DNA from: Candidatus Caldarchaeales archaeon
Lineage (GTDB): Archaea > Thermoproteota > Nitrososphaeria_A > Caldarchaeales > Wolframiiraptoraceae
Assembly (NCBI GenBank): GCA_039630055.1
Contig: JBCNVN010000016.1
Location: 10,795 to 31,354 of the forward strand
DNA: 20,560 nucleotides
Direction: 5' to 3'
A model generated the notes under the pieces. It was not told where the DNA came from and searched no databases. It saw nothing but the letters and a program-made list of their open reading frames with translations. Positions 1,427-20,560 of this stretch are shown here, piece after piece (position 1 is the stretch's first letter; each line of letters starts with the position of its first letter). Position numbers and translations under genes: made by a program.

Positions 1427-1506
1427 TAAGACTCCTCCTACTAAGCATCATTTATTAGAGAAATCTAAAAAATTAAAAAATAATATTGTGGTTGGATGAT
1501 TGCGTG

Positions 1507-2976: not shown

Positions 2977-3425
2977 AATGTAAATATTGTTATAAGTTAT
3001 ATATTAAATTTTTATATTTACGTCATAATGTTTATGTTTAGGTTCAGAATAGAGCTCTTATCTATGGTAAGATGATATGGAGATTAAGTGGTAGAGTATA
3101 TGATGAGTAAATGAGTATGTGTTTCTAATTCTTTCTTTATCTTAGAACGTCTAATATGATGTTAAGAATAAGATTAATGCACTTAATGTCTAGGTCTATG
3201 GAAGTCGGTGGGTTATGAAGCTCACTTTCTCAAGAAAGAACGTTAGAGGTCTTAAGATCTACATATCCGTAGCATCCTTCCAAGCACAATGCTCATAGCA
3301 GCTCTCCAACCATTCAAATTCATCTCTACCCCTCGAAATTTCTTCAGCCTTTTAATAATTTACATTCCATCCTTCCTTTTCTTTAATATATTCCAGAATA
3401 GATTATTTTTGGAGGTTTTAAGATT

Positions 3426-4613: not shown

Positions 4614-4655
4614 ATTATGAGAATATAATACTGGGCTCGATCTAGAGATGGTCGA

Positions 4656-5072
4656 CTAGTAGATGAGGTCGACATATGGTATGCCGATAGCCCTCGCTAT
4701 CTCTGCCTGTTCTTTATCAGATGTTACCAGTCCACCGAATCTCTCTGCTTGAGCTAAATATAGAGCATCATAGATACTTATGCTATTATCTAAAGCTATG
4801 GTTACAGCTCTTTCTAAGTAAGCTTCTTCATGCTCCAGCACTATCATACCTAGATCTACGAGTCTTGCAAGAGACTTGAAGATCTGTATAGCAGTATCTC
4901 TACTGATAAGATTTTTTACGATACAGTGCTTCCATAAAGCATTGACTACTTCTTTGAGCATATGGTCAAGAGAATATAACACTTCTTCTCTCTTCAAGTA
5001 CTGTGAGATTCTATCCCAGCCTTCTTCATGTAGAATGTACTTAACTAGAGAAGATGCATCAATTACTATCAC
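4656..5072 (-). CDS. vapC: PIN-domain toxin (VapC)
   Basis: VIDAS N-terminal motif, KEVVNALWK, SIYDALY, LVTSD; start overlaps the antitoxin gene. Confidence 0.92.
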   Translation of the reverse strand: MIVIDASSLVKYILHEEGWDRISQYLKREEVLYSLDHMLKEVVNALWKHCIVKNLISRDTAIQIFKSLARLVDLGMIVLEHEEAYLERAVTIALDNSISIYDALYLAQAERFGGLVTSDKEQAEIARAIGIPYVDLIY

Positions 5073-5286
5073 GATCTTCCCTCACATATGCACTGGCCGT
5101 ACCTCTCGGAGACTCTGGTAAACCGAGTATTAGATTCTCCAACTCTTCTATTGCTTTAAGACGTTCGTAAACATTCACTCTCTGCTCAATAAACCTTCTA
5201 ATCTCTTCACTCCAGTTAACATGTTTTCTCAATCTATCCATCTTTTCTTTTAACTCTCTAGGGATACGGAAAGAAACAACGCTCAT
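5059..5286 (-). CDS. vapB: Ribbon-helix-helix antitoxin (VapB)
   Basis: VVSFRIPRELKEKM...VNWSEEIRRFI RHH pattern; C-terminal VREDRD; directly upstream of and overlapping vapC. Confidence 0.9.
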   Translation of the reverse strand: MSVVSFRIPRELKEKMDRLRKHVNWSEEIRRFIEQRVNVYERLKAIEELENLILGLPESPRGTASAYVREDRDSN

Positions 5287-5306
5287 AATATCTCCTAGTA
5301 TGTATT

Positions 5307-5339
5307 TGTATTACAAACTTATAAATATATTGTAATACA
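5307..5339 (-). promoter_or_regulatory. vapBC promoter: TATA box flanked by a 10-bp inverted repeat (probable operator)
   Basis: TGTATTACAA (5307-5316) and TTGTAATACA (5330-5339) form a perfect IR; the 13-bp spacer reads TATATTTATAAGT on the minus strand; AGGAGA RBS precedes the vapB ATG. Confidence 0.75.
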
Positions 5340-5424
5340 TAATATTGGGAAAAAGTATTATGTTCTATAACTATCATGTCTCATATATTTCGTTTAATGA
5401 TCTAAGTCGACAAATAGATGAATT

Positions 5425-6030
5425 TCATATTGAGTTTCCTCTGAATCTCTGAGATTTTCCAACTATCTGGACTATCTCTTGGAATACTTCTCCAATACTT
5501 CTCGAAGCATAAACTATCTTTAACCTTTCTCTTACCGCTATCTCCAGGTATCTCTCTCTAACCTTTTCTAGAAACTTCTCTTCTTCAAATCTTGCTCTAC
5601 GCTTCCTGATCCTGCTTAATCCTATCCTCGGCTCAACGTCTAGAAGTATCGCTAAGTCAGGTCTAAATGCAAACTTATTTATCTCTTCAATCCATTCGGA
5701 ATCGCCCGTGGTTACCGATTGATATGCTAGAGATGAGTAGACATATCTATCGGATACCACTATGTATCCTTTCTGTATATATGGTATAACTTCTCTGTTT
5801 AAATGCTCTAGCCTATCTGCAGCAAATAGTAATGCTTCTACTCGAACATCTACATTTCTCTTCCTAATCATCTTCTTCAAGATCTTGCCTATGGGTCCGT
5901 CGGTCGGCTCTTTTGTATACCTTGACTTGAAACCTTTATTATTCAGCCATCTAACCAGCCTCTTCGATTGGATAGTCTTTCCAGAGCCGTCGATCCCCTC
6001 GATAACTATAAAGAATCCCTTGCTCTCCAT
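5425..6030 (-). CDS. tmk: Thymidylate kinase
   Basis: IEGIDGSGKT P-loop, TKEP, LLFAADR, SDRYVYSSLAYQ, PDLAILLDV. The ATG at 6030 is preferred over the track's start at 6060. Confidence 0.95.
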   Translation of the reverse strand: MESKGFFIVIEGIDGSGKTIQSKRLVRWLNNKGFKSRYTKEPTDGPIGKILKKMIRKRNVDVRVEALLFAADRLEHLNREVIPYIQKGYIVVSDRYVYSSLAYQSVTTGDSEWIEEINKFAFRPDLAILLDVEPRIGLSRIRKRRARFEEEKFLEKVRERYLEIAVRERLKIVYASRSIGEVFQEIVQIVGKSQRFRGNSI

Positions 6031-6189
6031 ACTACTCTCGGAAAGATAGGCAGTCAACAATATTAACAGTTAGATTATATTAGACTTTTCGAAGACCTTT
6101 ATAGACTATCTTCTCTAGATGGGCATCTTCTAGAATTCAGATAATCAAGCATATATTTTTTCTTAGAGCTTGTAGATTCATCTAGGATA

Positions 6190-7419
6190 CTATATCCTTC
6201 TACGGTTTATACCATTAAAAGATAATAGTTTTTCTTTCTCGATATTCTTTGTTAATTCTTTTTCTCTCCTTAGACCGTCTAGGATCTCGTCTAGTGGTGC
6301 ATGGGCGACGGAGACGTATGAGTCGGCTGAACCATAGTATACTATTAGTTCCCCATCTTTTACAATGGCGCCATTCGTGTATACTACTCCAGGCTTGAAC
6401 CCATTATACTCATATTCTCTATCCGGCTCTATGACTGGATATCTTGAGACCGCTAATATCTTCTCAGGATTATCTAAGTCTAAGAGCATCATTCCTATCT
6501 TGTATTTCCAAGGCTCATTCTTGCTGAGCCCATGGTAGAGTAGAATCCATCCCTCATCTGTCTTTATTGGTGGAGCTCCGGGACCCTTCACAACACCCTC
6601 CCATCCATTCCCATTAGAGTTGGGTATATAGATACTGTTTATCCGTTCTCCATTGCAGAAGCAGAGGTCATCTAGATATGTTATCTTGATCTTAGGCGTT
6701 ATACTATGTATTATTGCATATTTTCCATTAATCTTCTCTGGAAACATTACAAAGTTTTTATGGACTTCTCTAGGAGGCGATATTATCTTCTCCTCACTCC
6801 ACCTCCACCATCTCCTATTGAGGAAATCATCTATGCTGATCGAGGTGAATCCTACTCTCAACTCGTTTGGACCAAATGCAGTATAAGTTACGTATATCCT
6901 CTTATCTTCATCTATCTTAACTATTCTTGGATCTTCACATCCGCCGAAGCCTCCTCCGGAAGAGGAGGGATTGTAAGAGAGTTTCTCCATCCTTCTCTGA
7001 TATATAGGTTGTGGAAATCTTTCATCGATCTTAAATCCGCTGTTTGAGACAGCGTAACCGAATCGGGATATTCCATCGAATCCTATAGCTCTATAGATTA
7101 TATGGACCTTGTTGTCTAGAACTATGGCTCCCGCATTGAAGGTCTGGTATGCTTCCCAGTAATGTGTCCTGTTAGGGGTGATAATAGGATTATCAGGAAG
7201 CTTTCTTAATATTATTCTCCCATCGGTAGCCTCCTCTTCTAATCCTCTATTCCTTATCGATATGACCTCTTTTAATGGTTTTATCTGCTCTTCTATAACA
7301 GCTGTAGATGGTATTACCGTCCCCTCAATCCTGGTCTTTAGTGTCTTCCTAGTAGTTTTTCTACTAGGTCTAGTCTTGGTTTTCCGCTTTACAACAGTCT
7401 TCCGCGGTCTCCTCACCAT
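6190..7419 (-). CDS. GH130-family glycoside phosphorylase/hydrolase with a basic N-terminal extension
   Basis: NPIITP..WE..TFNAGA, IYRA, GCEDPR, KNFVMFPEKINGKY, PPIKTDEGWILLYHG, VVYTNGA, YYGSAD. Confidence 0.88.
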   Translation of the reverse strand: MVRRPRKTVVKRKTKTRPSRKTTRKTLKTRIEGTVIPSTAVIEEQIKPLKEVISIRNRGLEEEATDGRIILRKLPDNPIITPNRTHYWEAYQTFNAGAIVLDNKVHIIYRAIGFDGISRFGYAVSNSGFKIDERFPQPIYQRRMEKLSYNPSSSGGGFGGCEDPRIVKIDEDKRIYVTYTAFGPNELRVGFTSISIDDFLNRRWWRWSEEKIISPPREVHKNFVMFPEKINGKYAIIHSITPKIKITYLDDLCFCNGERINSIYIPNSNGNGWEGVVKGPGAPPIKTDEGWILLYHGLSKNEPWKYKIGMMLLDLDNPEKILAVSRYPVIEPDREYEYNGFKPGVVYTNGAIVKDGELIVYYGSADSYVSVAHAPLDEILDGLRREKELTKNIEKEKLLSFNGINRRRI

Positions 7420-7581
7420 AGCTTGACCACATCTTCTTGTCGATAGATTCTTCTACATATTAAAAAACTTTTTATACAGACTCGTAAATAATATACACGT
7501 TTGAAGCATAAACAAATACTTAAGAACGATAAAATATTTCAAATATAAAAAATAATAGGAAGACCGATAGTAGATACTTAT

Positions 7582-9483
7582 ATGAAGCGAAGCGTTCTCA
7601 ACCCTATTCTAATACCTATTAGAGAGCATTCATGGGAGGCTTACGCAGTCTTCAACCCCTCTGTAATCAAGAGGGGAAGATACTATTACATGTTATACCG
7701 TGCAGTCTCCTCCTCAGATCTATTAAAGAGGCAAGGGTCGAGCTTTAGCTCGATAGGTATAGCAAAGAGTAGAGATGGGATACACTTCTATGATAGGAGA
7801 AGGTTTATCTATCCTGAGAAAGAATGGGAGATCTTTGGATGTGAAGACCCGAGAGCAACATACATAGATGGTAGATACTATATCTTCTATACGGCCATTT
7901 CTACTATACCGCCCATCGCTGAAAACATAAGAGTAGGGGTAGCGATAAGCAGAGACCTAGAAAAGGTGGATGAAAAACATCTTGTAACCTCTTTCAATGC
8001 TAAGGCTATGGCCCTCTTCCCCGAGAGGATAAATAAGAAGCTAACAGCGATCTTGACAGTTCACACAGATAAGCCTCCAGCCTACATAGCCGTTGCACAG
8101 CTTGGAGACAACCCTTCTAAATGGCTCCATGAGATGGATGAATGGTATAAAGACTTCACTAGATATGTATTGACCCCTGATCCTCGGAGATCTACCTTAG
8201 ATCATATAGAAGTAGGTGCACCACCCGTAAAATTGGAAGATGGCTGGCTACTAATCTACTCCTACATACAGAACTATTTCTCACCTAGAATAGAAGATAG
8301 GATATTTGGAGTTGAAGCATTGCTTCTAGACCTGGATGATCCGAGAAAGGTTATCCGTAAGACTAGGTATCCATTCATGGTTCCTGAAGAATTCTATGAA
8401 CGCTATGGACATGTACCGAATATAGTATTTCCTACATCAGCTATGATAAGAAAGAATATGTTGAGATTATATTATGGTGCAGCTGATACAACATGTTGTT
8501 TAGCGACGGTTAAAATAGAAGCGATACTTAAAGCTATGGATAAGAATATGGGCCAAGTATTTGAAAGATATTCGAAGAACCCGATAATAAGTCCAGACCC
8601 CAACCATGATTGGGAGAGCATAGCAACATTCAATCCAGCGGCCATAGAGTTAGAAGGCAAGATATACATAATGTATAGAGCTTTATCCAGTGATAAGACC
8701 TCGACAATAGGTTTAGCCATCAGCGAAGACGGCTTCAAAATAGTTGAGAAGCTTGATGAACCAATATATGTACCACGAGAAAGCTTTGAGATAAAGCTGG
8801 CTCCTGGACATTCTGGATGTGAAGATCCCAGAGTAGTAAGAATAGGCGATAGAATATACATGTTCTATACAGCTTATGACAATGTAAATCCTCCAAGGGT
8901 AGCTATAACATCGATAAGTGTAGAAGATTTCTTGAATAGAGAGTGGAGATGGTCTAGACCTCGGATAATTTCACCTCCAAACATAGACGATAAGGATGCA
9001 TGCATCATACCTGAAAAGATCAACGATAGCTACATATTCATCCACAGAGCAGGTGGGATAAACATCGTCTACGATTATATAGAGTCTCTTGAAGATATCG
9101 ATAATACGGAGATGATGAGCTTAACACTTCTAACACCTAGAGAAGGCAGCTGGGATGGAAAGAAGGTTGGTCTAGCATCTCCACCGATAAAAGTTTCCTC
9201 AGGATGGCTTGTCTTCTACCATGGTGTATCACATGACAATGTGTATAGGGTCGGCGCCTTTCTATTAGATTTAGAGAATCCTGAGAAGATTATTGGAAGA
9301 ACACCTCATCCTCTACTAGAGCCTACTGAAGATTATGAAATAGAGGGTTATGTTAGAAATGTTGTCTTTCCATGTGGTGCGGTGGTAAGAAACGGTATGG
9401 TGTACTTATACTATGGTGGAGCGGATATGCATGTCTGTGTAGCGAGAGCTCCTCTGGAAGAGATAATCTCAAGAATAGTATGA
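7582..9483 (+). CDS. Tandem two-domain GH130-family protein
   Basis: Two complete repeats of NPIL/NPII..WE..FNP, YRA, GCEDPR, PE.IN, PP.K..GWL, VFP, YYG.AD. Confidence 0.9.
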   Translation: MKRSVLNPILIPIREHSWEAYAVFNPSVIKRGRYYYMLYRAVSSSDLLKRQGSSFSSIGIAKSRDGIHFYDRRRFIYPEKEWEIFGCEDPRATYIDGRYYIFYTAISTIPPIAENIRVGVAISRDLEKVDEKHLVTSFNAKAMALFPERINKKLTAILTVHTDKPPAYIAVAQLGDNPSKWLHEMDEWYKDFTRYVLTPDPRRSTLDHIEVGAPPVKLEDGWLLIYSYIQNYFSPRIEDRIFGVEALLLDLDDPRKVIRKTRYPFMVPEEFYERYGHVPNIVFPTSAMIRKNMLRLYYGAADTTCCLATVKIEAILKAMDKNMGQVFERYSKNPIISPDPNHDWESIATFNPAAIELEGKIYIMYRALSSDKTSTIGLAISEDGFKIVEKLDEPIYVPRESFEIKLAPGHSGCEDPRVVRIGDRIYMFYTAYDNVNPPRVAITSISVEDFLNREWRWSRPRIISPPNIDDKDACIIPEKINDSYIFIHRAGGINIVYDYIESLEDIDNTEMMSLTLLTPREGSWDGKKVGLASPPIKVSSGWLVFYHGVSHDNVYRVGAFLLDLENPEKIIGRTPHPLLEPTEDYEIEGYVRNVVFPCGAVVRNGMVYLYYGGADMHVCVARAPLEEIISRIV

Positions 9484-9595
9484 GAATCTATGGAAGATGC
9501 TTTTAGACTTAACCCTCCTTAGAAGGCGACACCCTCTTAGTCTTTATTGAATTAGATTTTTATAATAGATTAAAGGATTCTCAATTGAATTATCT

Positions 9596-9889
9596 ATGCT
9601 CTCTGAAGATGAGGAACTGGAATCAGTAACAAGATATTTTCATGCTCTCGGTAATAAAACTAGGTTGAAAATACTCTTACTACTTGCTTCTACTGAGAGG
9701 CCACTTCATATAAAAGCTATATCTAGAAAGCTCAAGATAAGTTATCCAGCCATCTATAGACATATAAAGACTATGGAGAATGCGAACATCCTCCAGATAT
9801 ATGAGGTTGGAAGAAGTAGAGTTGTAACCGTCATCAGCCCTGAGATACATAGTGAAGTTATTAATCTAATCAAGAAACATAAATCATAA
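9596..9889 (+). CDS. ArsR/SmtB-family winged-HTH regulator
   Basis: FHALGNKTRLKILLLL, and HTH region ISRKLKISYPAIYRHIKTME...GR. Confidence 0.85.
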   Translation: MLSEDEELESVTRYFHALGNKTRLKILLLLASTERPLHIKAISRKLKISYPAIYRHIKTMENANILQIYEVGRSRVVTVISPEIHSEVINLIKKHKS

Positions 9890-9973
9890 TAACAAAAATA
9901 GTAACATTGTATAACTTTTTTGCTAAGTCATTTATCCAATAACACTTATATAATTGATGAATCTTGTTAAATT

Positions 9974-10579
9974 ATGCCATCGAGTTACACTAGAATCAGC
10001 AAATGGTTGGCTGGGACATCTCTCCTAGCTTCAACAGCGATAATGATCTCTTTACTCCGTCTTAGAATACCATATCCCCTACTTCCATTCTTAAGCTTCG
10101 ACTTTGCAGAGATACCAAGCGTTATAGCTCTTCTAGTTCTAGATTTCAAATCTGCTTCTACTGTAGCAATAGTTCATTGGTTGACGCTGAATCTTGGAAG
10201 ACCTTTCCACGTTATCATAGGACCATTAATGAAACTCATCGCAGTGATCTCGATGCTAGTCGGGTTTAGACTGGTAGCAGGCAAGGATGGAAGTATGACC
10301 AGAGGTAAGATTGCTATGATGACAGCACTTGGGATCTTGACTAGAGTAGGAGTAATGTCTATAGTAACATTCATGATATACTATGTTATATTTCCAGAAG
10401 TTTATCTTCCTACATCTGAGAAAATATTAAAGAATGTCTTCGGCTTAGAGATCAGTTCAGACATCATAGTAGCATCGATAATAGTAGCTTTAACCGCAAT
10501 ATTCAACCTGATCCACGTCCCTCTCTCCCTAATTCCCGCATCATCGGTCTATGTCTTGTACAAGAAGATCTTTAAATGA
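9974..10579 (+). CDS. ECF transporter S-component (RibU/PanT-like)
   Basis: About 200 aa with 5-6 TM segments and the motif PYPLLPFLSFDFAEIP. Confidence 0.75.
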   Translation: MPSSYTRISKWLAGTSLLASTAIMISLLRLRIPYPLLPFLSFDFAEIPSVIALLVLDFKSASTVAIVHWLTLNLGRPFHVIIGPLMKLIAVISMLVGFRLVAGKDGSMTRGKIAMMTALGILTRVGVMSIVTFMIYYVIFPEVYLPTSEKILKNVFGLEISSDIIVASIIVALTAIFNLIHVPLSLIPASSVYVLYKKIFK

Positions 10580-10651
10580 TTAAATGATGTCCATGTATAG
10601 AGAGCATCTTAGGATAGGCGACCGTAAGAGATTCTTCTAAATTTTGTCAGC

Positions 10652-11887
10652 CTATTTCTTTAAGATCTCTACTCCCGGTAAAGTCCTCTCAGAGATATAT
10701 GTTATTAATGCTCCTCCTCCAAGGCTTACGTATGAGAAGTCTTTGGGGCTTAGGCCGACAAGCTCAATAGCGGTTGATGAATCTCCTCCACCGATCAATG
10801 TAAATGCCTTACATCTTGAAAGTGCCTCATAGACTATCCTTGTCCCTTTTCTAAACTCTTCTCTCTCATAAGCTCCCAATGGGCCTTTAACTATTATTGC
10901 ATCCTCTCTAGAAGAGTTCAAGATTATCTCAGCATATCCTTTAGCGGTCTTTTCACCTATATCGTATATAGTTCCAGGTGCTGGAAGCTTCTCTAAATCT
11001 ATCTCTACTCTTCTTCCATCTTCTTCATATGCTAAGTCTATGGGAGTTCTTAGCTTATCTCCAACCTTTTCTTTTATCTCTACTAAGTGTTTGATGTATC
11101 CATCGAATTTCTTCTTCTTGATATATGATTCTGAAGGCTCTCCGAGTTTTCTTCCTTCAGCCATTAGGAAGAGCTGTCCAAGCACTCCACCAGAAAGAAT
11201 ATGCTTGAGATTTTCAATGTTTTTAGATATTACTGCGTCTATGACCTTTATACATTCTTCAGGTTTATTTCCACCCATAACTAGCATGACTCTTCTATCT
11301 TCTTCGAGAACGGTGGTAATCGCTCTAAGCTCCCTCTCCATTATCCTACCGGCTACGGATGGTAAGATAGGTGAGAACCCTACCACTGATGCATGAGGCC
11401 TATGTGCAACAGAGAATGCATCTAATACGAATAAGTCAGCGAGAGGTGCTAGAGTAGATACAAGCTTACCACGAGAATGTTGTTCAGGCGATGTTTCCAC
11501 AGTCTCCTCATCAAGCATCCTAACATTCTCCAATAATAGAATCTCACCATTCTTCAACGATTTAACCGCTTTGACAGCATCTTCACCGATTATATCTGGA
11601 ACGTATCTGATGGGTTTACCTACGTGTTTTGAGAGAAGCTCTGCATGGTCTTTTAATAGAAGAAAGTCTGGATCACCTTTCCTTCCTTGATGTGCTAAGA
11701 GGACCACTCTAGAATTCTTCTCTGAGAGTTCTCTAATAGTCTCTGCATGTGCTCTAAGCCTCTCATTATCTCTAATCTTCCCAGTCTCAGGGTCGATCGG
11801 CGAATTCAAGTCAACCCTCACAATCAGAGTCTTACCTGAAACATCTACATCATCTAAAGTTCTAAACCAAATATTTCTTCTAGACAA
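10652..11887 (-). CDS. pgk: Phosphoglycerate kinase (archaeal type)
   Basis: RVDLNSP, LAHQGR, LLENVR, DAFSVAHRPHAS, GGGDS, SLGGGA. Confidence 0.96.
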   Translation of the reverse strand: MSRRNIWFRTLDDVDVSGKTLIVRVDLNSPIDPETGKIRDNERLRAHAETIRELSEKNSRVVLLAHQGRKGDPDFLLLKDHAELLSKHVGKPIRYVPDIIGEDAVKAVKSLKNGEILLLENVRMLDEETVETSPEQHSRGKLVSTLAPLADLFVLDAFSVAHRPHASVVGFSPILPSVAGRIMERELRAITTVLEEDRRVMLVMGGNKPEECIKVIDAVISKNIENLKHILSGGVLGQLFLMAEGRKLGEPSESYIKKKKFDGYIKHLVEIKEKVGDKLRTPIDLAYEEDGRRVEIDLEKLPAPGTIYDIGEKTAKGYAEIILNSSREDAIIVKGPLGAYEREEFRKGTRIVYEALSRCKAFTLIGGGDSSTAIELVGLSPKDFSYVSLGGGALITYISERTLPGVEILKK

Positions 11888-12072
11888 TTTTCATCATTAA
11901 TTCATCTATTTAGAGTAGTTAATTAAGATTCAGAGGTAAAGGATCTAAGAAGAAAGAAATTTTACGGTACTTAAATAATTATGTAAAGAAGGACATATAG
12001 ATCTACTTATAGTTAGTCTTTCCGGTCTTTAAGGTAGTATTTTGAGATGTATTGTGAGAGTCGACTGTATGT

Positions 12073-13104
12073 TTAACTAGATTGTAATTTCTTGGCTATC
12101 ATACAGACGACATCAACCAGTCGACAACTATAACCATACTCATTATCATACCATCCTAGGACTTTTACTACATCGCTCTTCTCGCCAATAACCATTATAC
12201 TCAATCCATCGATTATACATGAGTGTGGATTACCTATAACATCCGCTGAGACGATCGGGTCTTCTGTATATTCTAATATATTCTTCATCCTACCCTCTGC
12301 CGCTTTCTTAAATGCTCTCTTAACCTCATCTACTGTAACTTCCCTCTCAAGGTGAACCATTAAATCTGTTACTGAACCATCGGGAACCGGGACTCTTAAG
12401 GCTATGCCATCCATCTTACCTTTCACTTCTGGAATTACGAGATGAAGTGCAGATGCTGCACCTGTAGTTGTCGGTATTATCGATAATGATGCAGCTCTAG
12501 CTCTTCTCAGATCTCTATGAACTAGATCTAGTACTCTCTGATCGTTCGTGTATGCGTGGACCGTGGTCATGAAGCCTTTCTTTATTCCAAATTCATCTAA
12601 TAGTACTTTGACCATTGGGGCTAGACAATTAGTAGTGCATGAAGCAGCAGATACCACGTCATGTTTAGATAGGTCTAGCATATGATCGTTTACTCCTGGA
12701 ACTATTGTTACATCCGCATCTTTGCATGGAGCTGTAACCAATACCTTCTTTACTGTACCTCTAATATGTTTTGAGGCATCACTCTTAGATGTAAACTGTC
12801 CCGTGGCCTCGACTACTAGTTCTACTCCATTCTCACTCCATGGTATCTGAGAAGGATCCTTTATACTGTAAGCTCTAAGCTCTTTCCCATCTATTATAAT
12901 ACTTTTATCAGTGTATGAGATCTCTCTATTTAATTTTCGATGTACTGAATCATATTTGAGAAGTAGAGCGGTTGTCTTGGTATCTGCCAGTTCGTTGAAT
13001 GCTACAACCTCGAACTCTTTCCCATATCTCGGATCATCTAGTGCAGCTCGAAGGAACAATCTACCAATCCTACCCATTCCGTTAATTCCAACCTTCAGAA
13101 CCAT
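12073..13104 (-). CDS. gap: Class I (bacterial/eukaryotic-type) glyceraldehyde-3-phosphate dehydrogenase
   Basis: GINGMGRIGR, ASCTTNCLAP, TTVHAYTNDQ, RRARAA, IIPTTTGAA, RVPVPDGS, WYDNEYGYS. Confidence 0.96.
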   Translation of the reverse strand: MVLKVGINGMGRIGRLFLRAALDDPRYGKEFEVVAFNELADTKTTALLLKYDSVHRKLNREISYTDKSIIIDGKELRAYSIKDPSQIPWSENGVELVVEATGQFTSKSDASKHIRGTVKKVLVTAPCKDADVTIVPGVNDHMLDLSKHDVVSAASCTTNCLAPMVKVLLDEFGIKKGFMTTVHAYTNDQRVLDLVHRDLRRARAASLSIIPTTTGAASALHLVIPEVKGKMDGIALRVPVPDGSVTDLMVHLEREVTVDEVKRAFKKAAEGRMKNILEYTEDPIVSADVIGNPHSCIIDGLSIMVIGEKSDVVKVLGWYDNEYGYSCRLVDVVCMIAKKLQSS

Positions 13105-13418
13105 CTCGATTTAATATCGGATGAACTAGTTTTTATGTTTTATGTATAGACAAATCTTATATACTAATAAAATCTATGGTCTAACACTCTATCCTAACAA
13201 TATCTCAATTCGAATATTAGATAGGGTTAAGGATCCATCATCCCTAGACTTGGCAGCCTCTCAGACTGATGTGAAGATATTTCTTTTAAACTTTCCTCTT
13301 CAATCTTTCTACTATTCTCTATCTTTAGAACTTAATAATGACTAAGAGATCTTTAGAAAAACTTATAGAGTAGATTAATGCATAAACTTATAATGTACAT
13401 CTTTTCTCTAAAATATGT

Positions 13419-14255
13419 ATGAGTAAGCATCGGACCAGTATAGAGTTTCCCATAGATCTATGGGAAGCATTAAAGAAGTATATCCCCGCCCGGAAGAGAA
13501 GCTCATTCATTATCGAGGCAGTAAGAGAAAGATTGATGAGAGAATCATTAAAATGTCTAATTCTATGTGGTGGTAGAGGTACAGGTCTAACACCATTAAC
13601 TTTGAGTATACCTAAACCGATGATGCCGGTAGGCTACAAGCCGATAATCGAGCATATTATCGCATACATGAAGATGCAGGGTATCTACAACTTCATCCTA
13701 GCTATAGGATATCTAGGTGAACACTTGATAAAATACTTTGGAGATGGTAGGTCTCTAGGTATAACGATCGATTACTCTATCGAGAAGACGCCTCTTGGAA
13801 CGGCCGGCGCGGTAAAGAATGCTGAGAAGAAACTTAACAATACTTTCCTAACAATTAATGGAGACATAATATTCAAAGGGTTAGATGTATCTAATCTGAT
13901 AAGATATCATAGAGAGAAGAACTCTGTTGCAACCCTCGTTTTGACTAGGGTTGAAGATGCTAGAAGATTTGGCCTAGTCTCAGTAGATGAAGAAGGAAGG
14001 GTTATAGCATTTAGAGAGAAGCCTAGACAGCAGGCTCCAGGCCTCGTCAACGCTGGAATCTACGTATTCGAGCCCTCCATCTTCAACTATATACCGTCCG
14101 ATAGACCCTCATCTCTAGAAGAAGATATCTTCCCAGAACTTGCAGACCAGAATAAACTATACGCTTATATACATAATGGATACTGGATAGATATAGGGGA
14201 TAAGCTCGATTACGAGAAGGTCTGTAAAGACTTCTTTAATGGCTTGCTGCTATAA
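13419..14255 (+). CDS. Sugar-1-phosphate nucleotidyltransferase (Man-1-P guanylyltransferase-like) with an N-terminal RHH-like domain
   Basis: ILCGGRGTGLTPLT..PKPM, EKTPLGTAGA, NGD, FREKP, NAGIY, YWIDIG; the first ~42 aa (RTSIEFPIDLWEALK...RSSFIIEAVRERL) fit a CopG/RHH pattern. Confidence 0.85.
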   Translation: MSKHRTSIEFPIDLWEALKKYIPARKRSSFIIEAVRERLMRESLKCLILCGGRGTGLTPLTLSIPKPMMPVGYKPIIEHIIAYMKMQGIYNFILAIGYLGEHLIKYFGDGRSLGITIDYSIEKTPLGTAGAVKNAEKKLNNTFLTINGDIIFKGLDVSNLIRYHREKNSVATLVLTRVEDARRFGLVSVDEEGRVIAFREKPRQQAPGLVNAGIYVFEPSIFNYIPSDRPSSLEEDIFPELADQNKLYAYIHNGYWIDIGDKLDYEKVCKDFFNGLLL

Positions 14256-14361
14256 TTCTAAAGATCTTGAACCTATAAAACCTTATATAGTTCGATAAAT
14301 CTACTCATTTTTTGGTAAATACTCAGGTTTAAGTTATCCTAAGATCCTTTTTATACCTGGC

Positions 14362-15015
14362 ATGTCTAAAGACTCGAAGATAAGAATGACTGTAGTTATA
14401 GCTGTATCAACGGTCTTCGGCGCCTTATCCTCCCTTCTAGCAATGATGCCTCTAAGCTTCTCATTCCCCCTAATACCTTACTTAAAGTTCGATATAGCAG
14501 AGATACCTGTAGTTACAGCTTTTATAGGTTTCGGCCCTATTCCAGGAGCCGTATCTGCGATAACCCTTTGGCTTATCTTAAATATTTTTGGAGAATGGAC
14601 GCCTATCGGACCCGCTATGAAATTTCTCGCCGTCATCTCTATGCTGACAGGTTTCTGGATAGGTTACAAATTATCTTCGAGGTTTAGAGTATCATATATA
14701 GTTGTATTTTTATTTGGTGGTTTGGTAAGGATTATTGCTACGACTATTGCGAATTATATACTCCTAGTAGCCTTGGCACCCTTCTTCCTAGAGTATGCTG
14801 TATCTTTTGTATCTCTAGCTCTAGGTTTAAATATTGAGGTCGGTCTAGCCGGTTTAATACTAGTTCTATTCTTCACAGCAGTATACAACATACTGCATAC
14901 ATTATTCAGCCTATTTCCATCGATACTGCTGGTTAAGAGGTTCTCTCAACAAGGATTATTCCTAAACCTTAAGGAGCCTTGGATAATGGTCTCGAAGAGA
15001 GAGAAGAAGCCTTAA
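14362..15015 (+). CDS. ECF transporter S-component (RibU/PanT-like)
   Basis: FPLIPYLKFDIAEIP motif, IGPAMK, multiple TM segments; paralog of 9974-10579. Confidence 0.78.
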   Translation: MSKDSKIRMTVVIAVSTVFGALSSLLAMMPLSFSFPLIPYLKFDIAEIPVVTAFIGFGPIPGAVSAITLWLILNIFGEWTPIGPAMKFLAVISMLTGFWIGYKLSSRFRVSYIVVFLFGGLVRIIATTIANYILLVALAPFFLEYAVSFVSLALGLNIEVGLAGLILVLFFTAVYNILHTLFSLFPSILLVKRFSQQGLFLNLKEPWIMVSKREKKP

Positions 15016-15956
15016 CCTTTCTCATAAACTATCTTCTCAACTTCTCTTAATGCTCTTTCGAATAGCTTACCACTTAAGATACCTTTATCGAGAGCCTGTT
15101 CGAGGAGTTCTTTATCAATCACCTTAGGTTCACGGTCTGGAAGAGCTACAACATCTATCTCTAAATCGAAGTAATGTATCTGGTCTGGATAGAATGCAAT
15201 AGGTGTACAGATATTGTAATATGTGCCCTTGAGAGTTCCAGAGAAATTATAGTAGCTCGTCTTAGCCCACATCTCTAATCTTCTAGCTTCTGTTACAGCA
15301 TAATCTCCTACATGCTTAGGTAAACCTAGACCATCATATACGCCGGAACCCATAATCCTTCTAAGAATCTTAACGGTTTGATCACTTCTCCATGTAACTT
15401 TTCCAGGTCCGAGAACTATCCTTCCACCATTAAGTTTCACATGTATTATCTTGATCTTTGAGCCAAGTCTAGGAGTAAGCTGTTTAACCTGTTCTTCAAA
15501 CATCTTATCCATCTCACTAGGAGATACTAATCCTCTCTCTACCAGGTCCTCCGCGAAGCTGACCATACTCGATAATGCTTCTCCTCCAGCTCTACAATAG
15601 TGATGCCATGGAACAGTATATGCTATACTAGATCTTAGCTCATCAAGCTTCTTCTTAGCATCGACTGGAAACCCTAATCTAACATGTGGGATAGGTTTAT
15701 CCCTCCGTAAAACGATCAAATCTTCAAAGAATTCCCTCATAACATCAACTATAGGCTTAACTGCTTCCTCAGAGCCTTTGACCTCTGCGAAATGCCTATC
15801 GGTTGAGTCTACTATTGTCGCATCAGGCTCAGAGGTTATGTCCTCTAATCCAAACCTCTCTACTTGGGACTTTGTAGGCTTAACTATCTTAAACCCTTTA
15901 TCTATCAATAGCTTGGCTAACGCTGTAGAGTATATCCCTCTAATCGAGACCTTCAA
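15012..15956 (-). CDS. fau-1: FAU-1-like RNA-binding protein / probable ribonuclease (DUF402)
   Basis: N-terminal IRGIYSTAL, LDELR..T..WHH, GVYDGLG, GTYYNICTP, YFDLEIDVV. Confidence 0.82.
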   Translation of the reverse strand: MKVSIRGIYSTALAKLLIDKGFKIVKPTKSQVERFGLEDITSEPDATIVDSTDRHFAEVKGSEEAVKPIVDVMREFFEDLIVLRRDKPIPHVRLGFPVDAKKKLDELRSSIAYTVPWHHYCRAGGEALSSMVSFAEDLVERGLVSPSEMDKMFEEQVKQLTPRLGSKIKIIHVKLNGGRIVLGPGKVTWRSDQTVKILRRIMGSGVYDGLGLPKHVGDYAVTEARRLEMWAKTSYYNFSGTLKGTYYNICTPIAFYPDQIHYFDLEIDVVALPDREPKVIDKELLEQALDKGILSGKLFERALREVEKIVYEKG

Positions 15957-16029
15957 CTCCTAATAAATTGTAGATAGCTCTCCTATAACCTTAATGGCTA
16001 GCTGGTTTACATATTACCACTTTAAAACA

Positions 16030-17622
16030 CTAGGAGGATGAAGACTGCCCCGTTACAGTTCTAGGTGGTTGTGGTAGTTCCTTGATCTTTTCTTTTACTC
16101 TGACCGGCCAATCATCGAACTCGAAGCCGTGTCTTGCGAGGAAGCCTGCAGCCCACCTAGTCAATCCATGACCTACACACCCAGTCCACAACTCTCTATT
16201 CTTTACTTCTTTTATCTTGAATGCTTTAACATAGAAGTCTCTATGAACTGATGCTGCCGTGATCTCCAGCCATTCTGCTCTATCTCTCGGCCCTCTATAA
16301 GGTAGATAGACTTCTACATCTAATGTAGGTATCTTCTCGGTGCTCGATATATCTATTAGACGTTTAGATGCTTCTTCAGGGGAGAGGAAGAATGGGGCTC
16401 CAGCTACAACCCTCCACTCCATATCCAATACTCTATCAACTAGTTCAACGGTTAGATCTGTCACCTTGTCTCTTATCTCGACAGTCTCTTCCGGACCTGC
16501 TAAGAATACCATCTCCATCCTCCAGAACTCGTTCGTTCTAACCAATCCCTCAACTCCTCCACCCTCGTTTCTCCAAGTCCATCCACCTAGAAGGTCGAAA
16601 GCCTTGATCGGTAACTCTTCCAACCTAACAATCTCTCCAGAGAAGTATTGATAGAATGGTGGACATTGTACGGCTTCTAGAACATATCCAGGCTCTTCTA
16701 AAATATTCTTCAGCAAGTCTCTCCTCAACTCTCTCCTCAAAGCATACTCTCTCTTGAATTCTTCAAACGCAGTGGGTTCTCTCGGTGGAGCACAGACATA
16801 GAATAACCCTTCAGGAAGATGTTCAACATATGTTGAGAGCTTCTTAAAGACTTCGAAAGGCATAAGTCTGGGGAACATCCATTCTTGGAACCCTAAAGGT
16901 TTCGCAACATATTCTATTATCAGCTCGGAGAGGGTTCTAAGTAGGGTTGTCATAGGTGCAGTAAAGATCCATTGTCCTCTACCAGGATAACGTCTAGCCC
17001 ATCCCAGCCTCTCAGCCTCTATAGATACCTCTCCACTCAATCTGAATGTTTTCTCTTCACCTCTCTTTAAGATGGTGCCGAAGGTTGCAAGCTTCTCTAC
17101 GGGACGTTCTTCAACCTCCTGCACTCGGACCAATCTTATCGTCCGGTCCACTATCCTTTCACGAATATCATGGTCGGAGAGGTTCTCGAAGACTAAGATT
17201 AGTGAATCATCTTCAGAAGATAATTTAACGACTTCTCCAAGCTTCTCTCTAGCCTTCTCTAAACCTATATGTCCTCCATGAATCTTAACGGTAAGCTTCT
17301 CTACAACTATATCTCGAACTCCAACCTTCATGGATGGTCCAATCCTCTCAGCAAGAATATTCTTGAATCTCAGAAGAGCATCATGTGCTCTAAGCTTTCC
17401 TCCAGAGATTATCTTAAGCTTCAATCTCTTACCTTCTCCACCATACCCCACTATGACCGCAGTCTGGCTTGCTTCTCCAGAGACAGTCTTCCTAAACATC
17501 TCGTTAGCTTCTCTAATCACCTCCGATATCTGAGTAGCCAAGCCACCTACATCCATCGTTAACTCGAGATATCCTTCTAGCTCAATCCTCAACTCCATGA
17601 AGCCGCCACTCAAGCTAAACAT
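16030..17622 (-). CDS. serS: Seryl-tRNA synthetase, methanogen (type 2) form
   Basis: Long non-coiled-coil N-terminal domain with RAHDALLR; PGRGQW, QCPPFY, GWTWRNEGGG, EFWRME, WTGCVGHGLTRW. Alternative start at ATG 17598. Confidence 0.9.
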   Translation of the reverse strand: MFSLSGGFMELRIELEGYLELTMDVGGLATQISEVIREANEMFRKTVSGEASQTAVIVGYGGEGKRLKLKIISGGKLRAHDALLRFKNILAERIGPSMKVGVRDIVVEKLTVKIHGGHIGLEKAREKLGEVVKLSSEDDSLILVFENLSDHDIRERIVDRTIRLVRVQEVEERPVEKLATFGTILKRGEEKTFRLSGEVSIEAERLGWARRYPGRGQWIFTAPMTTLLRTLSELIIEYVAKPLGFQEWMFPRLMPFEVFKKLSTYVEHLPEGLFYVCAPPREPTAFEEFKREYALRRELRRDLLKNILEEPGYVLEAVQCPPFYQYFSGEIVRLEELPIKAFDLLGGWTWRNEGGGVEGLVRTNEFWRMEMVFLAGPEETVEIRDKVTDLTVELVDRVLDMEWRVVAGAPFFLSPEEASKRLIDISSTEKIPTLDVEVYLPYRGPRDRAEWLEITAASVHRDFYVKAFKIKEVKNRELWTGCVGHGLTRWAAGFLARHGFEFDDWPVRVKEKIKELPQPPRTVTGQSSSS

Positions 17623-17890: not shown

Positions 17891-18655
17891 ATGTCTTTCA
17901 GAATGAGGTTGCCTAGTGCAGACTACTTTTCAGATCTAATGAAGGCTGTGCAGGCCGTAGTTGATGAGGGGACTTTCAAGATTACAGAGGATGGTATCAG
18001 GCTGATAGCCATGGATCCCGCCCACATCTCTCTTATAGACTTCGAGCTAAGCAATTCTGCAGCTGAAGAATATGAATGCGGTGGAGAACTCCAGATGACT
18101 ATCAGTATCTCTGAGATGATGAAGTTTCTCCGGAGGATAAAGAAGGGTGAAGGTCTAACCTTGATGTATGATAACCAATCGAGAAAGCTCAGCATAATAC
18201 TTGTAGATGCAACCAGTTCTAGAGAGAGAACTTTTACTCTGAATACTCTAGAGACTGTCGAGGCGAGAAGTACAACCCCTAAATTAACCTTCGATGCAAA
18301 GGCTAGATTGAATGTAGATGCTTTAAAAGATGCTATTAGGGATAGTGATGTAGTAAGCGACTACGTAAAGATAATCCTAAACCCTAATGAGGTAATCTTT
18401 CTGGCTAGAGGTGAGCTTGGAACAGTTCAGACAAAGCTCAGCAAGATGGGTGCGGCAGTGTACGAGATAGAGGCGGATAAGGAGGTGTGGGCCAACTTCA
18501 GTATAAGCTATCTTGACAAGATCGTTAAGGCTGGAGCCGACCTCTCAGAAGAAGTAATCATAAGTTTATCGACGAACAAGCCTATAAAGCTTGGATTCCC
18601 CATACCATCTGGAAGATTAGAATACTTGATCGCTCCAAGAATAGAGAGCACATAA
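17891..18655 (+). CDS. pcn: DNA polymerase sliding clamp (PCNA)
   Basis: AMDPAHISLIDF, FSISYL, PIKLGF, C-terminal YLIAPRIE; AAACTTCTATAAA TATA-like box upstream. Confidence 0.96.
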   Translation: MSFRMRLPSADYFSDLMKAVQAVVDEGTFKITEDGIRLIAMDPAHISLIDFELSNSAAEEYECGGELQMTISISEMMKFLRRIKKGEGLTLMYDNQSRKLSIILVDATSSRERTFTLNTLETVEARSTTPKLTFDAKARLNVDALKDAIRDSDVVSDYVKIILNPNEVIFLARGELGTVQTKLSKMGAAVYEIEADKEVWANFSISYLDKIVKAGADLSEEVIISLSTNKPIKLGFPIPSGRLEYLIAPRIEST

Positions 18656-18785
18656 AAATCCTAGAATCTACATCAAACGCTAAAATATTTCAATTACTAT
18701 AATATGTAGATAAAAATTTATAAATTAGTCCATGTAAGACATGAAAAATACATAAACCCCCTAAGCATATTCTAGATACGGCTGT

Positions 18786-19039
18786 GTGAAAGATATGGTG
18801 GAGAAGTATGAATCACCGTGGAGTTCTCCTTATATCTTCACGGTGGTGAGCGAACTCTATCGCTCACCCATTGCGAGGTGAAATAAGAAATAAAGGAGTG
18901 GAGGGGGCCTCTGGTCATGAGTTGCTACGGCTTAGATTAGTTCGGTTAAACTCTGAACGGACGTGGGAGTAACCCTCGTCTTTCACCTCGCAGGCCTACT
19001 AATCTTCATCGCCTTTATAGCTCATGACCAGTAGGCCTT
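18786..19039. ncRNA. Candidate structured non-coding RNA (~260 nt) overlapping the 3' end of the IS110-related ORF
   Basis: At least eight complementary segment pairs of 6-16 bp within a GC-richer, ORF-poor stretch (coordinates in findings). No match recognised to tRNA, SRP or RNase P. Strand unresolved. Confidence 0.65.
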
Positions 19040-19926
19040 ACGGAGATGGTTGTAGTTGCTTGCGGTCTATTAGATAATAAATATGCTTGTCTCATATCTT
19101 TGATTATTTGAGTTTTTATCCTTGTTATTATCTGTCTCCGACACATCTTCTTAGACTTTACTAATTCAATAAGTCTTCTATATTTCTCTGATATCTTCTT
19201 ACATTTTCCTTTTTTGAGGTTGAAGTATATGCTACTTGCTAGTAACGATAAATGTTTGTTTACTCTGAAATTATGTTTGCAATAACTCCATATTTCACTT
19301 TTACTATGGCTTAGGTCTATAAACGTCAATGATATAGCTAGCTCCACGCTATCATTTAAGCCAATGATTTGAAGTATCTTACGATATATTGGTGTGTTTT
19401 CATTAATTTTTCTACATATCTCTTCACCGATCCTTCTCTTCTCTTTTTCATAATCTCTTATGACCTTCTTTATATCACAGTATTCTGGAGTATCTCTAAG
19501 CCATTGTTTTAAAACTTGGATTCTTTTACCAAGCCTCTCATATCTTGAGATTAGTGGATTCATTTCTATTTTCACCTCAATCTCCCACATCATTACTTCT
19601 CTAAAGAATTCTTTAGGAATCTTCGAGATTGTAAGAGCATCATTTTCATCGCTCTTCTTAAGATTGTTCTCAACTCTCTTCTCTTTTAGAACTCTAGTAT
19701 TCTTCAAAAGAAATATCTTTACACCATTCTTCAATAATTCATAGATCTCACTGTAAATCGATGAGAACAAAACATCGATATAGATTTCCTCAGCATCTCT
19801 AAGCTCTGTCAACTTCTTAACCTTGAAGCATCTCTCACCATCAAACACCACATGCATCTTACTCTTATTCTTCTTGGAATCCAATGAATTGGCGACATCA
19901 ACATAATAAATCTTTCCTTCAGCCAA
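19015..19926 (-). CDS. IS110-related protein (RuvC-like DEDD domain + coiled coil + degenerate Tnp/Nop-like domain)
   Basis: YYVD10VA, IYID51, KKSD93END96A match the IS110 GIDVxK / E / KTDxxDA layout; helical K/E/R-rich region at ~120-176; ILQIIGL...EIWSYC...EKYRRL resembles the IS110/Tas C-terminal domain. TTG start with GAGGTGA RBS. Confidence 0.7.
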   Translation of the reverse strand: MAEGKIYYVDVANSLDSKKNKSKMHVVFDGERCFKVKKLTELRDAEEIYIDVLFSSIYSEIYELLKNGVKIFLLKNTRVLKEKRVENNLKKSDENDALTISKIPKEFFREVMMWEIEVKIEMNPLISRYERLGKRIQVLKQWLRDTPEYCDIKKVIRDYEKEKRRIGEEICRKINENTPIYRKILQIIGLNDSVELAISLTFIDLSHSKSEIWSYCKHNFRVNKHLSLLASSIYFNLKKGKCKKISEKYRRLIELVKSKKMCRRQIITRIKTQIIKDMRQAYLLSNRPQATTTISVRPTGHEL

Positions 19927-20200
19927 TATATGTCACCTCTTCATCTTCTTCTCTCCCAAATATCATGTCTGCCGCTATAAGCCCTCCAATAATCAATAGA
20001 GCTGCTAAGAGTCTGCTATCATTATATCTCTTTAAGACTTTCTCGATCGCCTCGGTATACTTATCTTCTTCATCGAAGATCTTTGCAACCTCCCTTACAA
20101 CTTCATCATATTGATTCCATGATAATCCTAGAGCTGAATGCAGACGCTCAGCATCATGCCTTAATGCAACTCTGAATAACCTCTTAACGATAACCACCAT
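19919..20200 (-). CDS. Hypothetical protein (93 aa, one hydrophobic segment)
   Basis: GAGGTGGTGA RBS upstream of the ATG; its stop overlaps the start of the 303-aa ORF. Confidence 0.7.
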   Translation of the reverse strand: MVVIVKRLFRVALRHDAERLHSALGLSWNQYDEVVREVAKIFDEEDKYTEAIEKVLKRYNDSRLLAALLIIGGLIAADMIFGREEDEEVTYIG

Positions 20201-20273
20201 CCACGTTCACCACCTCTAGACTATGTATAGCATCATCTATTAAGTCCAGTATCTCTTGCCTTAACCTCCGCAT
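20184..20273 (-). CDS. Possible 29-aa microprotein MRRLRQEILDLIDDAIHSLEVVNVDGGYR
   Basis: Its ATG overlaps the upstream stop (TGATG), it fills the gap between two ORFs, and it reads as an amphipathic helix; below the ORF-track size cut-off. Confidence 0.45.
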   Translation of the reverse strand: MRRLRQEILDLIDDAIHSLEVVNVDGGYR

Positions 20274-20497
20274 CAATGGTTCACCGCAAGATATTTTGAG
20301 TAGAATCTACAGAACATCTCTAGATCATTTCTGAAATCAGATATTCTCACCACCACTCTAAAATCAATGTCTTCTCCAAGCAGCGGTAGTAGAGACTCAG
20401 CATACTCTATAAGCCTCTCGAAATCCTCTATTCCAACCTCGCTGAAAGCCTCTAAATACTTCTCTCTAATCTTTTCAAGGGCTCTGACCACCATCAA
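20273..20497 (-). CDS. Hypothetical protein (74 aa)
   Basis: AGGTGA RBS upstream; closely spaced to neighbours on both sides. Confidence 0.65.
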   Translation of the reverse strand: MMVVRALEKIREKYLEAFSEVGIEDFERLIEYAESLLPLLGEDIDFRVVVRISDFRNDLEMFCRFYSKYLAVNH

Positions 20498-20500
20498 CCA

Positions 20501-20560
20501 TCACCTTTTGATGGCGTAGATAGAGTATATCAGTAGTATTACTACAATCAAGAGCATCAT
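20501..20560 (-). CDS. C-terminal end of a probable membrane protein (likely begins beyond the window)
   Basis: Open frame ...MMLLIVVILLIYSIYAIKR* from the window edge; its stop lies inside the RBS of the next gene. Confidence 0.5.
   Translation of the reverse strand: MMLLIVVILLIYSIYAIKR

Follow-up and report, generated by a model that had tools for sequence, protein, structure and literature searches.

The stretch of DNA analyzed here (the window) comprises 20,560 nucleotides (nt) of contig JBCNVN010000016.1 from the Candidatus Caldarchaeales assembly GCA_039630055.1 and carries, from position 18885 to its end, part of a mobile element. The principal gene of this element is a minus-strand open reading frame (ORF) of 303 amino acids (aa) at 19015 to 19926. 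The end of the ORF, from its final codons to the stop, falls within the 5' arm and the first internal loop of a predicted rod-shaped structured RNA (18911 to 19031, most likely minus strand), recognized by its fold and by covariation within a family of related loci. The outer stem of the rod pairs 18911-18921 with 19021-19031 and encloses first an internal loop and then an inner stem, which leads to an apical internal loop closed by a terminal hairpin predicted at 18960 to 18980. Between the rod and the element end lies a tail (18885 to 18910) that is C-rich and then T-rich in the orientation of the ORF, and beyond the end lies the host flank (18872 to 18884). A 12-nt segment of this flank (18872-18883) is the exact reverse complement of one side of the apical loop. 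The two segments are best read as a guide, on the 5' side of the loop, and the half of its insertion target that was left beside the element.

The pair consists of TGCGAGGTGAAA at 18872-18883 and TTTCACCTCGCA at 18981-18992, as had been reported in a first-pass annotation made from the sequence alone, and that annotation was also right that the pairing crosses the outer stem of the rod, with one copy inside the rod and the other beyond it. When up to one mismatch is allowed, these are the only two matches to the 12-mer in the window, where 0.05 are expected, and none of 100 dinucleotide shuffles contained two or more. Exact copies of the 12-mer in the 1.54-Mb, 80-contig assembly are confined to these two sites; there are two additional sites with one mismatch, and a reversed control pattern gave two matches. 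A repeat search extends the pair to 17 nt at 88% identity and also recovers the outer stem of the rod (18911-18921 with 19021-19031). The region from 18760 to 19070 folds far more stably than its shuffles on both strands (z scores of -5.5 and -5.8), and in the minimum free energy fold of its minus strand, the 12-mer helix forms and the outer stem of the rod is lost. A chance inverted repeat has nothing to recommend it beyond the small size of the repeat, and the low expected number of matches, the uniqueness of the 12-mer in the genome, and the recurrence of the same relation in other elements reduce the probability of coincidence to almost nothing.

The insertion site and its uninterrupted form

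The closest relative, whose PCNA is 94% identical, has no match to the family of the 303-aa protein. Its sequence aligns with the window through ...CTGTGAGGTGAAAT (in the window ...TTGCGAGGTGAAAT, ending at 18884). Beyond approximately 18884, the relative reads TCTGAAAGCAATTGTTGTT... (TCTGAAAGCAATTG...), which is the start of a saccharopine-dehydrogenase-like gene, whereas the window reads AAGAAATAAAGGAGTGG.... In the window's own genome, the saccharopine-dehydrogenase-like gene is on contig C35, directly after ...TCTAGAGGAGTTGAAAT/TCTGAAAGC. The element therefore occupies the sequence from 18885 to the end of the window (1676 nt) together with ~1150 nt of C35, with the contig break inside it, and is at least ~2.8 kb in length between the PCNA gene and the saccharopine-dehydrogenase-like gene. 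The hexamer TGAAAT stands at both element junctions: at 18879-18884, within the host flank, and again at the far end.

Empty and occupied alleles occur together in metagenomic data. In all three DNA runs of one hot-spring study, contigs pass position 18884 straight into TCTGAAAGCAATTGTTATTGGTGT..., one of them continuing for more than 255 letters past 18884, and other contigs from the same runs span 18855-19863 of the occupied allele. These runs may include the source sample of the window and are not independent of the assembly, but the polymorphism is evident in them. Among the contigs aligned to the stretch, no joint skips the element, and the empty allele is represented only by loose ends at 18884. 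Because the relative reads through the site and both alleles coexist in metagenome contigs, the element is an insertion that starts at position 18885.

The insertion decides between two readings of the crossing complementarity that the first-pass annotation had offered: a long pseudoknot, or a single-stranded guide able to pair with DNA at the element's own end in the manner of the donor-binding loop of an IS110 bridge RNA. An intramolecular pseudoknot, forming part of a functional RNA fold, agrees with the prediction of the 12-mer helix in a minus-strand transcript that reads through the element end. One strand of that helix, however, is host DNA that predates the insertion, being present without the element both in the nearest relative and in the empty-allele contigs; in other copies of the element, the complementary segment lies anywhere from 56 to ~260 nt from the rod and is always at the host junction where this has been mapped; and a T-rich tract separates rod and flank. 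Because the host DNA at 18872-18883 is present even where the element is missing, the pseudoknot is excluded as an evolved feature of the RNA and is highly improbable as an account of the pair; a helix in read-through transcripts could mask the guide. The alternative of a guide was correct in kind but not in its DNA partner, since the match is to the host target flank at 18884/18885 and not to the element's own (donor) end. By the same evidence, the analogy with a donor-binding loop gives way to that of a target-binding loop, whose 3' side matches the other half of the target.

Several features of the site concern the neighboring genes. The host intergenic region between PCNA and the insertion site (18778-18868, plus strand) contains two stable hairpins, among them GGTGAGCG...CGCTCACC at 18845-18868. 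The second hairpin is kept in the element-free relative with altered stem letters and may be a terminator for PCNA or a leader of the downstream gene; the insertion site lies directly past it, at a Shine-Dalgarno-like GAGGTGA motif. At the far element end on C35 (positions 2677-2700 of locus L068), the sequence just ahead of the interrupted gene reads GGAGTTGAAAT and resembles the original GAGGTGAAAT; the insertion may keep a ribosome-binding-like sequence for the downstream gene. In the relative, this gene lacks an ATG, GTG, or TTG start close to the conserved N terminus.

Matches between proposed guide segments and targets across the family

Read as minus-strand RNA, the apical loop of the window element is 5' ...AGGCC-UGCGAGGUGAAA-(hairpin)-CGUUCAGAGUUU-AACCGA... 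3'. The 5'-side guide, UGCGAGGUGAAA (18981 to 18992, minus strand), is identical to the plus-strand flank at 18872-18883 and so would pair with the minus strand of the flank. The 3'-side guide, CGUUCAGAGUUU (18948 to 18959, minus strand), would pair with the other half of the target, AAAT/TCTGAAAG (the slash marking the junction), on its plus strand, with 10 Watson-Crick pairs, one G-T pair, and one mismatch. The footprints of the two guides overlap by 3 nt within the repeated hexamer. In the empty site of the relative, the 12-mer has one substitution, and the match of the window guide to the top strand of this site is reached by only 1 of 500 target shuffles; the bottom-strand match, which is that of the 3' guide and has a score of 10.3, is reached by 9 of 500.

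The same relation between guides and target, with different sequences, is present in homologous loci. Empty sites were found in related genomes for five other elements, and all six (that of the window, L055, L035, L036, L007, and L010) were tested uniformly. A match on at least one side was found in five of the six and on both sides in four (P < 0.05), with the matches confined to positions -8 to +17 relative to the junction. In L055, a 1603-bp element with GAGCTT at both ends, the 5' side GGGUUAGAAAGAAGC is antisense to GCTTCTTTCTGACCC, and the 3' side CUUAGCCGAG has the sense of the other half. L035, with ATAGGT(TT) at both ends, is ~1.2 kb and has only ~135 nt upstream of its ORF; its 3' side GGGAAAUAGGUU matches the empty site in the sense orientation at 12 of 12 positions, and its 5' side AGGCUUAAAC is antisense. 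Both sides of L036 (~2.0 kb) match across the junction, the 3' side being palindromic and the arrangement ambiguous. In L007, a decayed copy with an in-frame stop, the sense match is reached by 1 of 500 shuffles and the antisense match by 33 of 500. The corresponding values for L010 are 64 and 114 of 500, and neither match is significant.

In the window element, L055, L035, and L007, the guides run 5' to 3' from the outer end of each half-site toward the center of the target, on opposite strands, and their footprints overlap by 1 to 3 nt. A hexamer repeat is found in three of the four elements for which both junctions could be read (the window element, L055, and L035, with at least 6 bp in L035), and none is clear in L036. 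Inspection by eye of four elements yielded no consistent donor-binding match of the conserved first internal loop to the element ends.

The relation was also sought in a blind scan of 28 loci, in which the apical part was compared with the 300 nt downstream and each locus's own flank was set against the flanks of other loci. Values of P ≤ 0.05 were obtained for 5 of the 28 loci (1.4 expected) and values of P ≤ 0.1 for 12 (2.8 expected). An earlier blind scan covering 140 nt downstream, in which only the window element and L055 stand out, missed the remaining loci owing to tails as long as ~260 nt and to decay of some of the flanks. Three of the elements tested against empty sites (L036, L007, and L010) score at background in the blind scan. 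At several loci, it is the 3' side that is complementary to the downstream flank, a possible alternative arrangement.

Five copies (L011, L013, L038, L047, and L050) are situated within ~100 to 250 nt of tRNA genes, in some cases intron-containing ones, and two of these copies (L047 and L050) show complementarity between the 3' side of the loop and downstream tRNA sequence; tRNA genes may be frequent targets. One metagenome-assembled genome (MAG) contains two near-identical elements, L008 (G194:C127) and L052 (G194:C25), which are also nearly identical over more than 300 nt downstream. The 5' part of the apical loop, by contrast, is very different in the two, and the complement of the L008 loop occurs ~262 nt downstream. 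They may be variants of a single locus in different strains, or two long-tailed copies.

The predicted rod RNA and the RuvC-Nop-like protein

At the family loci, the rod follows the ORF on the same strand and begins in its last codons, with the stop codon falling within a conserved UAGUAA of the first internal loop. An alignment of 19 of the 28 delimited rods, drawn from the nearer subfamilies and including 2 entered as the reverse complement, contains 25 consensus pairs, 19 of which show compensatory changes. Pairing is satisfied in 94.7% of alignment cells, as compared with 17 to 47% in slid controls, and none of 500 shuffles was as good. The motifs flanking the guides are also conserved: UA(A/G)GG precedes the 5' guide, and AUGGUA and CCYG precede and follow the 3' guide. 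A blastn search of the rod against 30 related loci returned no match, and the RNA is recognizable by structure and short motifs only. No known Rfam family reaches its gathering score in the window, where searches at E ≤ 10 return only subthreshold microRNA and C/D small RNA (sRNA) matches. The window contains no tRNA or transfer-messenger RNA and no match to RNase P RNA or signal recognition particle RNA, both of which are elsewhere in the genome, on contigs C56 and C3.

The first-pass annotation had folded the plus strand, but the RNA most likely derives from the minus strand, that of the adjacent ORF, as indicated by the family pattern, the downstream T tract, and the guide geometry. The ORF strand is preferred because an antisense RNA would give the mirror of the published guide geometry. 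A C-rich tract followed by T4 to T6 succeeds the rod in most family copies, and the T-rich tail is possibly an oligo-U terminator. On the ORF strand, 34 alignment cells are G-U and 15 are A-C, and the ORF-sense rod is the more stable in 17 of 28 cases (mean, 4.8 kcal/mol; Wilcoxon test, P = 0.007). At two loci, L044 (G194:C13; rod at 3215-3335) and L045 (G267:C54; rod at 2370-2515), the entire rod, outer arms included, is inverted relative to the ORF, with the orientation of the C-rich tail unchanged and the antisense strands the more stable; this could reflect a DNA inversion at the ~14-bp arms and may be a switch, a sign of a dead copy, or a by-product.

The 303-aa protein belongs to no Pfam family. 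Its relatives number 14, each of ~295 aa, in a set of 5.8 billion clustered proteins, and a search of 1.84 billion proteins recovered 243 family representatives at E ≤ 1e-3. Records of its public relatives are from Ca. Wolframiiraptor gerlachensis, Ca. Geocrenenecus arthurdayi, and uncultured Nitrososphaeria MAGs. Among 401 genomes sampled across the phylum, the family is present in 29, which belong to three families within a single order, and is often multicopy, with stop-containing copies and copies at contig ends; a paralogue occurs on contig C37 of the window's own genome. In an alignment of 13 members, D10, H25, D29, E47, D51, K91, D93, and D96 are invariant, and the catalytic residues are presumably among D10, E47, D51, D93, and D96.

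The alignment and an AlphaFold2 model built from it (pLDDT, 88.6; pTM, 0.78) predict a RuvC-like (DEDD-like) domain, a coiled coil, and a Nop/Tnp-like helical fold. The best match among solved structures is the nuclease TIGR-TasR (9mty; Foldseek E, 2.5e-7; TM, 0.57; Z, 17.2; root mean square deviation, 4.2 over 253 residues), and the ISCro4 and IS621 recombinases match the model with a Foldseek E of ~1.5e-5 and a Z of 16.7 over 262 residues. The Nop part of TasH matches model residues 116-289 (Z, 13 to 14), RuvC matches residues 3-111 (Z, 6.9), and Nop56/58-type proteins match the model with a Z of ~8. As modeled, the fold fits TIGR-TasR and the IS621/ISCro4 recombinases equally well.

Such matches raise the question of whether this is a canonical IS110/IS1111 element, with the 12-mer as the donor-binding loop of its bridge RNA pairing with the element's own end. 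Like the present family, IS110/IS1111 elements (IS621 and ISCro4) are mobile, encode one ~300-aa protein in which a RuvC-like DEDD domain is combined with a coiled coil and a helical RNA-binding domain, and insert site specifically with a short sequence common to both junctions. In IS1111-type elements, the structured RNA is 3' of the gene, as it is here. The IS110 DEDD domain, PF01548, gives weak matches in 8 of the 13 aligned members (best E, 1.4e-4), although none in the window protein. Guide geometry is likewise the same as in the IS621 loops, where an internal loop carries two guides to opposite strands of the target halves that overlap at midsite (PMC11208160).

The resemblance is limited by the source of the matched DNA, which is host sequence present without the element, and by the absence of a detectable serine domain. 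In IS621, S241 is the nucleophile and forms a phosphoserine intermediate (PMC13626964). In the sequence searches on which this absence rests, the IS110 serine/Tnp domain PF02371 was found neither in the window protein nor in the 13 members, even at E ≤ 10; it has no match in the window's own genome, and 3 of 61 genomes from the order have it. Where a canonical IS110 copy from a related genome reads ...GLVPSERSSGGG..., the family has, by eye, a shorter GLxPxxxxGRYNH with no invariant serine. Sequence similarity is otherwise marginal: an hhalign comparison with a canonical IS110 fragment from the same order aligned the KKSDENDA motif alone (E, 0.023; 51 columns), and the family profile yielded two chance-level matches among the sequences of solved structures (E of 1.3 and 1.6). 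The RNA also departs from the IS110 pattern in having a single evident variable guide loop and no evident donor loop, guides of 10 to 15 nt rather than 4 to 9, and a junction repeat of 6 bp as opposed to a 2-nt core. Moreover, in four elements, the element is reversed within the guide-defined target. Their guide arrangement, turned by 180 degrees, is the published IS621 rule, and it also agrees with the two-spacer logic of the tigRNA (PMC12045711). The likeness to IS110 proposed in the first-pass annotation thus survives as a match in fold, one that TasR equals, and a canonical bridge recombinase is very unlikely.

A probable RNA-guided mobile element and its relation to known systems

Taken together, these results are best explained, with a probability of about 0.6, by an RNA-guided mobile element in which the apical loop is a target-binding loop and a RuvC-Nop-like protein, acting with the rod RNA, finds a site of ~21 bp at which the element is inserted with a 6-bp repeat. 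The core module would consist of the ~300-aa RuvC-plus-Nop-like protein and a ~120-nt rod RNA extending over and just past the stop of its gene, to which the protein would bind. Each guide would pair with its own half of the uninterrupted target, the two taking different strands and their footprints overlapping at midsite, and the protein-RNA complex would thereby locate the ~21-bp site, the element then being inserted such that TGAAAT comes to stand at both junctions. Because no serine nucleophile domain is detectable, our guess is that a DEDD site would perform the chemistry through a staggered cut and joining, producing a 6-bp duplication.

Several observations weigh against this explanation. 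L010, one of the six elements tested, lacks a significant guide-target match, and L036 has no clean hexamer repeat and a palindromic 3' side. L055 and L035 were picked for their high scores in the blind scan, which introduces a selection bias, and 16 of the 28 loci in that scan did not rise above background; long tails (up to ~260 nt), decayed flanks, and the possible alternative arrangement explain part of these 16 but not demonstrably all. One variable dual-guide loop is evident, and no convincing second, donor-binding loop was found. The 6-bp repeat may reflect a duplicated target or, alternatively, a shared recombination core. The existence of the rod RNA, its strand, and its ends are all inferred; just 17 of the 28 rods favor the ORF-sense strand, and the window rod itself is better on the plus strand by 4.5 kcal/mol. 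Finally, the window protein lacks the GLxP...RYNH stretch altogether, and because even the short GLxP loop of its relatives is gone, the protein may be inactive or the element may be mobilized in trans.

The structural match to TasR leads to a second explanation, in which the protein itself inserts no DNA. Under a homing mechanism, a TasR-like protein and its RNA would cut only the empty allele, where alone the two half-sites adjoin, and host homologous recombination would copy the element from an occupied chromosome. This would accommodate a protein whose best structural match is a nuclease and in which a serine recombinase domain is undetectable, as well as the occurrence of empty and occupied alleles in one population. 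Moreover, the guides span the junction, so the occupied allele would be immune, as with homing endonucleases, and staggered cuts by TasR are reported (PMC12045711). What homing does not readily supply is the diversity of sites: the elements occupy many different sites, each with its own matching guides, which would require de novo insertion by a preexisting guide, and hexamer repeats at both junctions in three of four elements are unexpected from simple break repair. We therefore regard homing as unlikely, although it is far from negligible, and favor guided insertion by the element's own protein and RNA.

The TIGR-Tas systems offer the closest comparison in domain content. TasR shares with the present family its RuvC and Nop domains, the absence of a serine domain, and a similar size, and the tigRNA pairs with both DNA strands through its two spacers (PMC12045711). 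The same source describes an active TasR from a Thermoproteota archaeon, and stem-loop units of TIGR-Tas can overlap the 3' end of the tas gene (bioRxiv 10.64898/2026.09.09.750476). Unlike TIGR-Tas, there is no tandem array in the window from 18500 to 20560, and the loci examined have one rod per gene. The guides here are longer, with overlapping footprints in place of adjacent 9-nt spacers; they match the insertion site of the element itself, and the locus is demonstrably mobile. At the sequence level, the family profile matches no solved Tas protein at E ≤ 10.

Two other RNA-guided systems show partial likeness. Archaeal box C/D sRNAs and Nop5 resemble the family in that a Nop-type fold is distantly matched (Z, 6.5 to 8.3) and the RNA has two guide segments flanking an internal loop. 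In contrast to these, the acidic RuvC residues are conserved here, and the target is DNA flanking a mobile element and not rRNA. The subthreshold C/D sRNA matches (sR30, sR39, sR35, and sR49) fall at 18955-19013 of the minus strand, an interval that takes in the inner stem and the 5' guide, and that to sR30 scores 14.8 bits against a threshold of 38. The IS200/IS605 elements, with TnpB and its omega RNA, are similar in that, at the element end, the protein gene and the gene for the guide RNA overlap at the 3' end of the former and the guide matches adjoining DNA. They differ in protein fold, Pfam and structure searches having returned no TnpB match, and in having a single 3' guide where the present RNA has dual internal guides.

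IS110 bridge recombinases combine a Nop-type RNA-binding domain with a serine domain and a two-loop RNA, both of which are needed for DNA movement, and TIGR-Tas, the other known RNA-guided system with such a domain, cuts or binds DNA and uses arrays. The family described here resembles TasR in its domain set and has a single dual-guide RNA, but it is clearly mobile and carries guides that match its own insertion site. These properties suggest a relative of the RNA-guided IS110 and TIGR-Tas systems that has not been described before. No description of a mobile, serine-less member with a single guide unit was found in the literature as far as it was accessible, although supplementary tables with thousands of tas and IS110-like loci could include the family. 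Faure et al. 2025 mention communities of IS110-like proteins with variant Nop domains, and a 2026 language-model survey is restricted to loci with both PF01548 and PF02371.

IS110, TIGR-Tas, and archaeal C/D ribonucleoproteins (RNPs) have been proposed to share an origin (bioRxiv 10.1101/2024.06.21.599552; related discussion appears in PMC12045711), and no extant archaeal IS110 clade was identified as the ancestor of Nop5 (bioRxiv 10.1101/2024.06.21.599552). More tentatively, and at somewhat less than even odds, the family may constitute a third, self-mobile branch of the Nop-domain RNA-guided superfamily: a ~1.2-kb archaeal transposon with a ~295-aa serine-less RuvC-Nop protein and a single dual-guide stem-loop RNA, recognizing a 20- to 25-bp site at which it would insert itself, producing a 6-bp duplication. 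Such a branch would be a living intermediate that links the TIGR-Tas nucleases to the IS110 bridge recombinases, close to the proposed ancestor of Nop5 and the C/D RNPs, and a compact, thermophile-derived candidate for programmable DNA insertion. If the elements insert themselves, they would represent a new chemistry for RNA-guided insertion, with recognition of ~21 to 25 bp by a ~295-aa protein in hot-spring archaea. To our knowledge, the biological role of TIGR-Tas is unsettled, and if the elements only home, they would provide a concrete natural function for TIGR-like nucleases. Either outcome bears on the proposals of a common origin for IS110, TIGR-Tas, and C/D RNPs.

Whereas the minimal element consists of the ORF and the RNA, that of the window has additional small ORFs without Pfam families. 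A 93-aa ORF (19919 to 20200, minus strand) overlaps the start of the 303-aa ORF and ends in ...EEDEEVTYIG, a C-terminal motif common to the paralogous locus on C37, where the overlap has the same arrangement. Further element DNA (20201 to 20560, minus strand), which includes a 74-aa ORF at 20273-20497, reaches the contig end and goes on in C35. Pfam searches returned nothing above threshold for the 93-aa and 74-aa ORFs, for a 55-aa ORF of L055, or for a 183-aa ORF on C35. Contig depth in the metagenome runs at 20048-20200 and 20504-20560 is several-fold above that of the remaining element DNA (in run X1, up to 90 and 122 versus ~10), suggesting that these segments are common to other copies or organisms, which probably explains the contig break. 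The remainder of the window (1-17622) contains housekeeping genes, encoding phosphoglycerate kinase, GAPDH, a nucleotidyl transferase, a class II aminoacyl-tRNA synthetase with a tRNA-binding domain, a DUF402 protein, and a GH130 phosphorylase.

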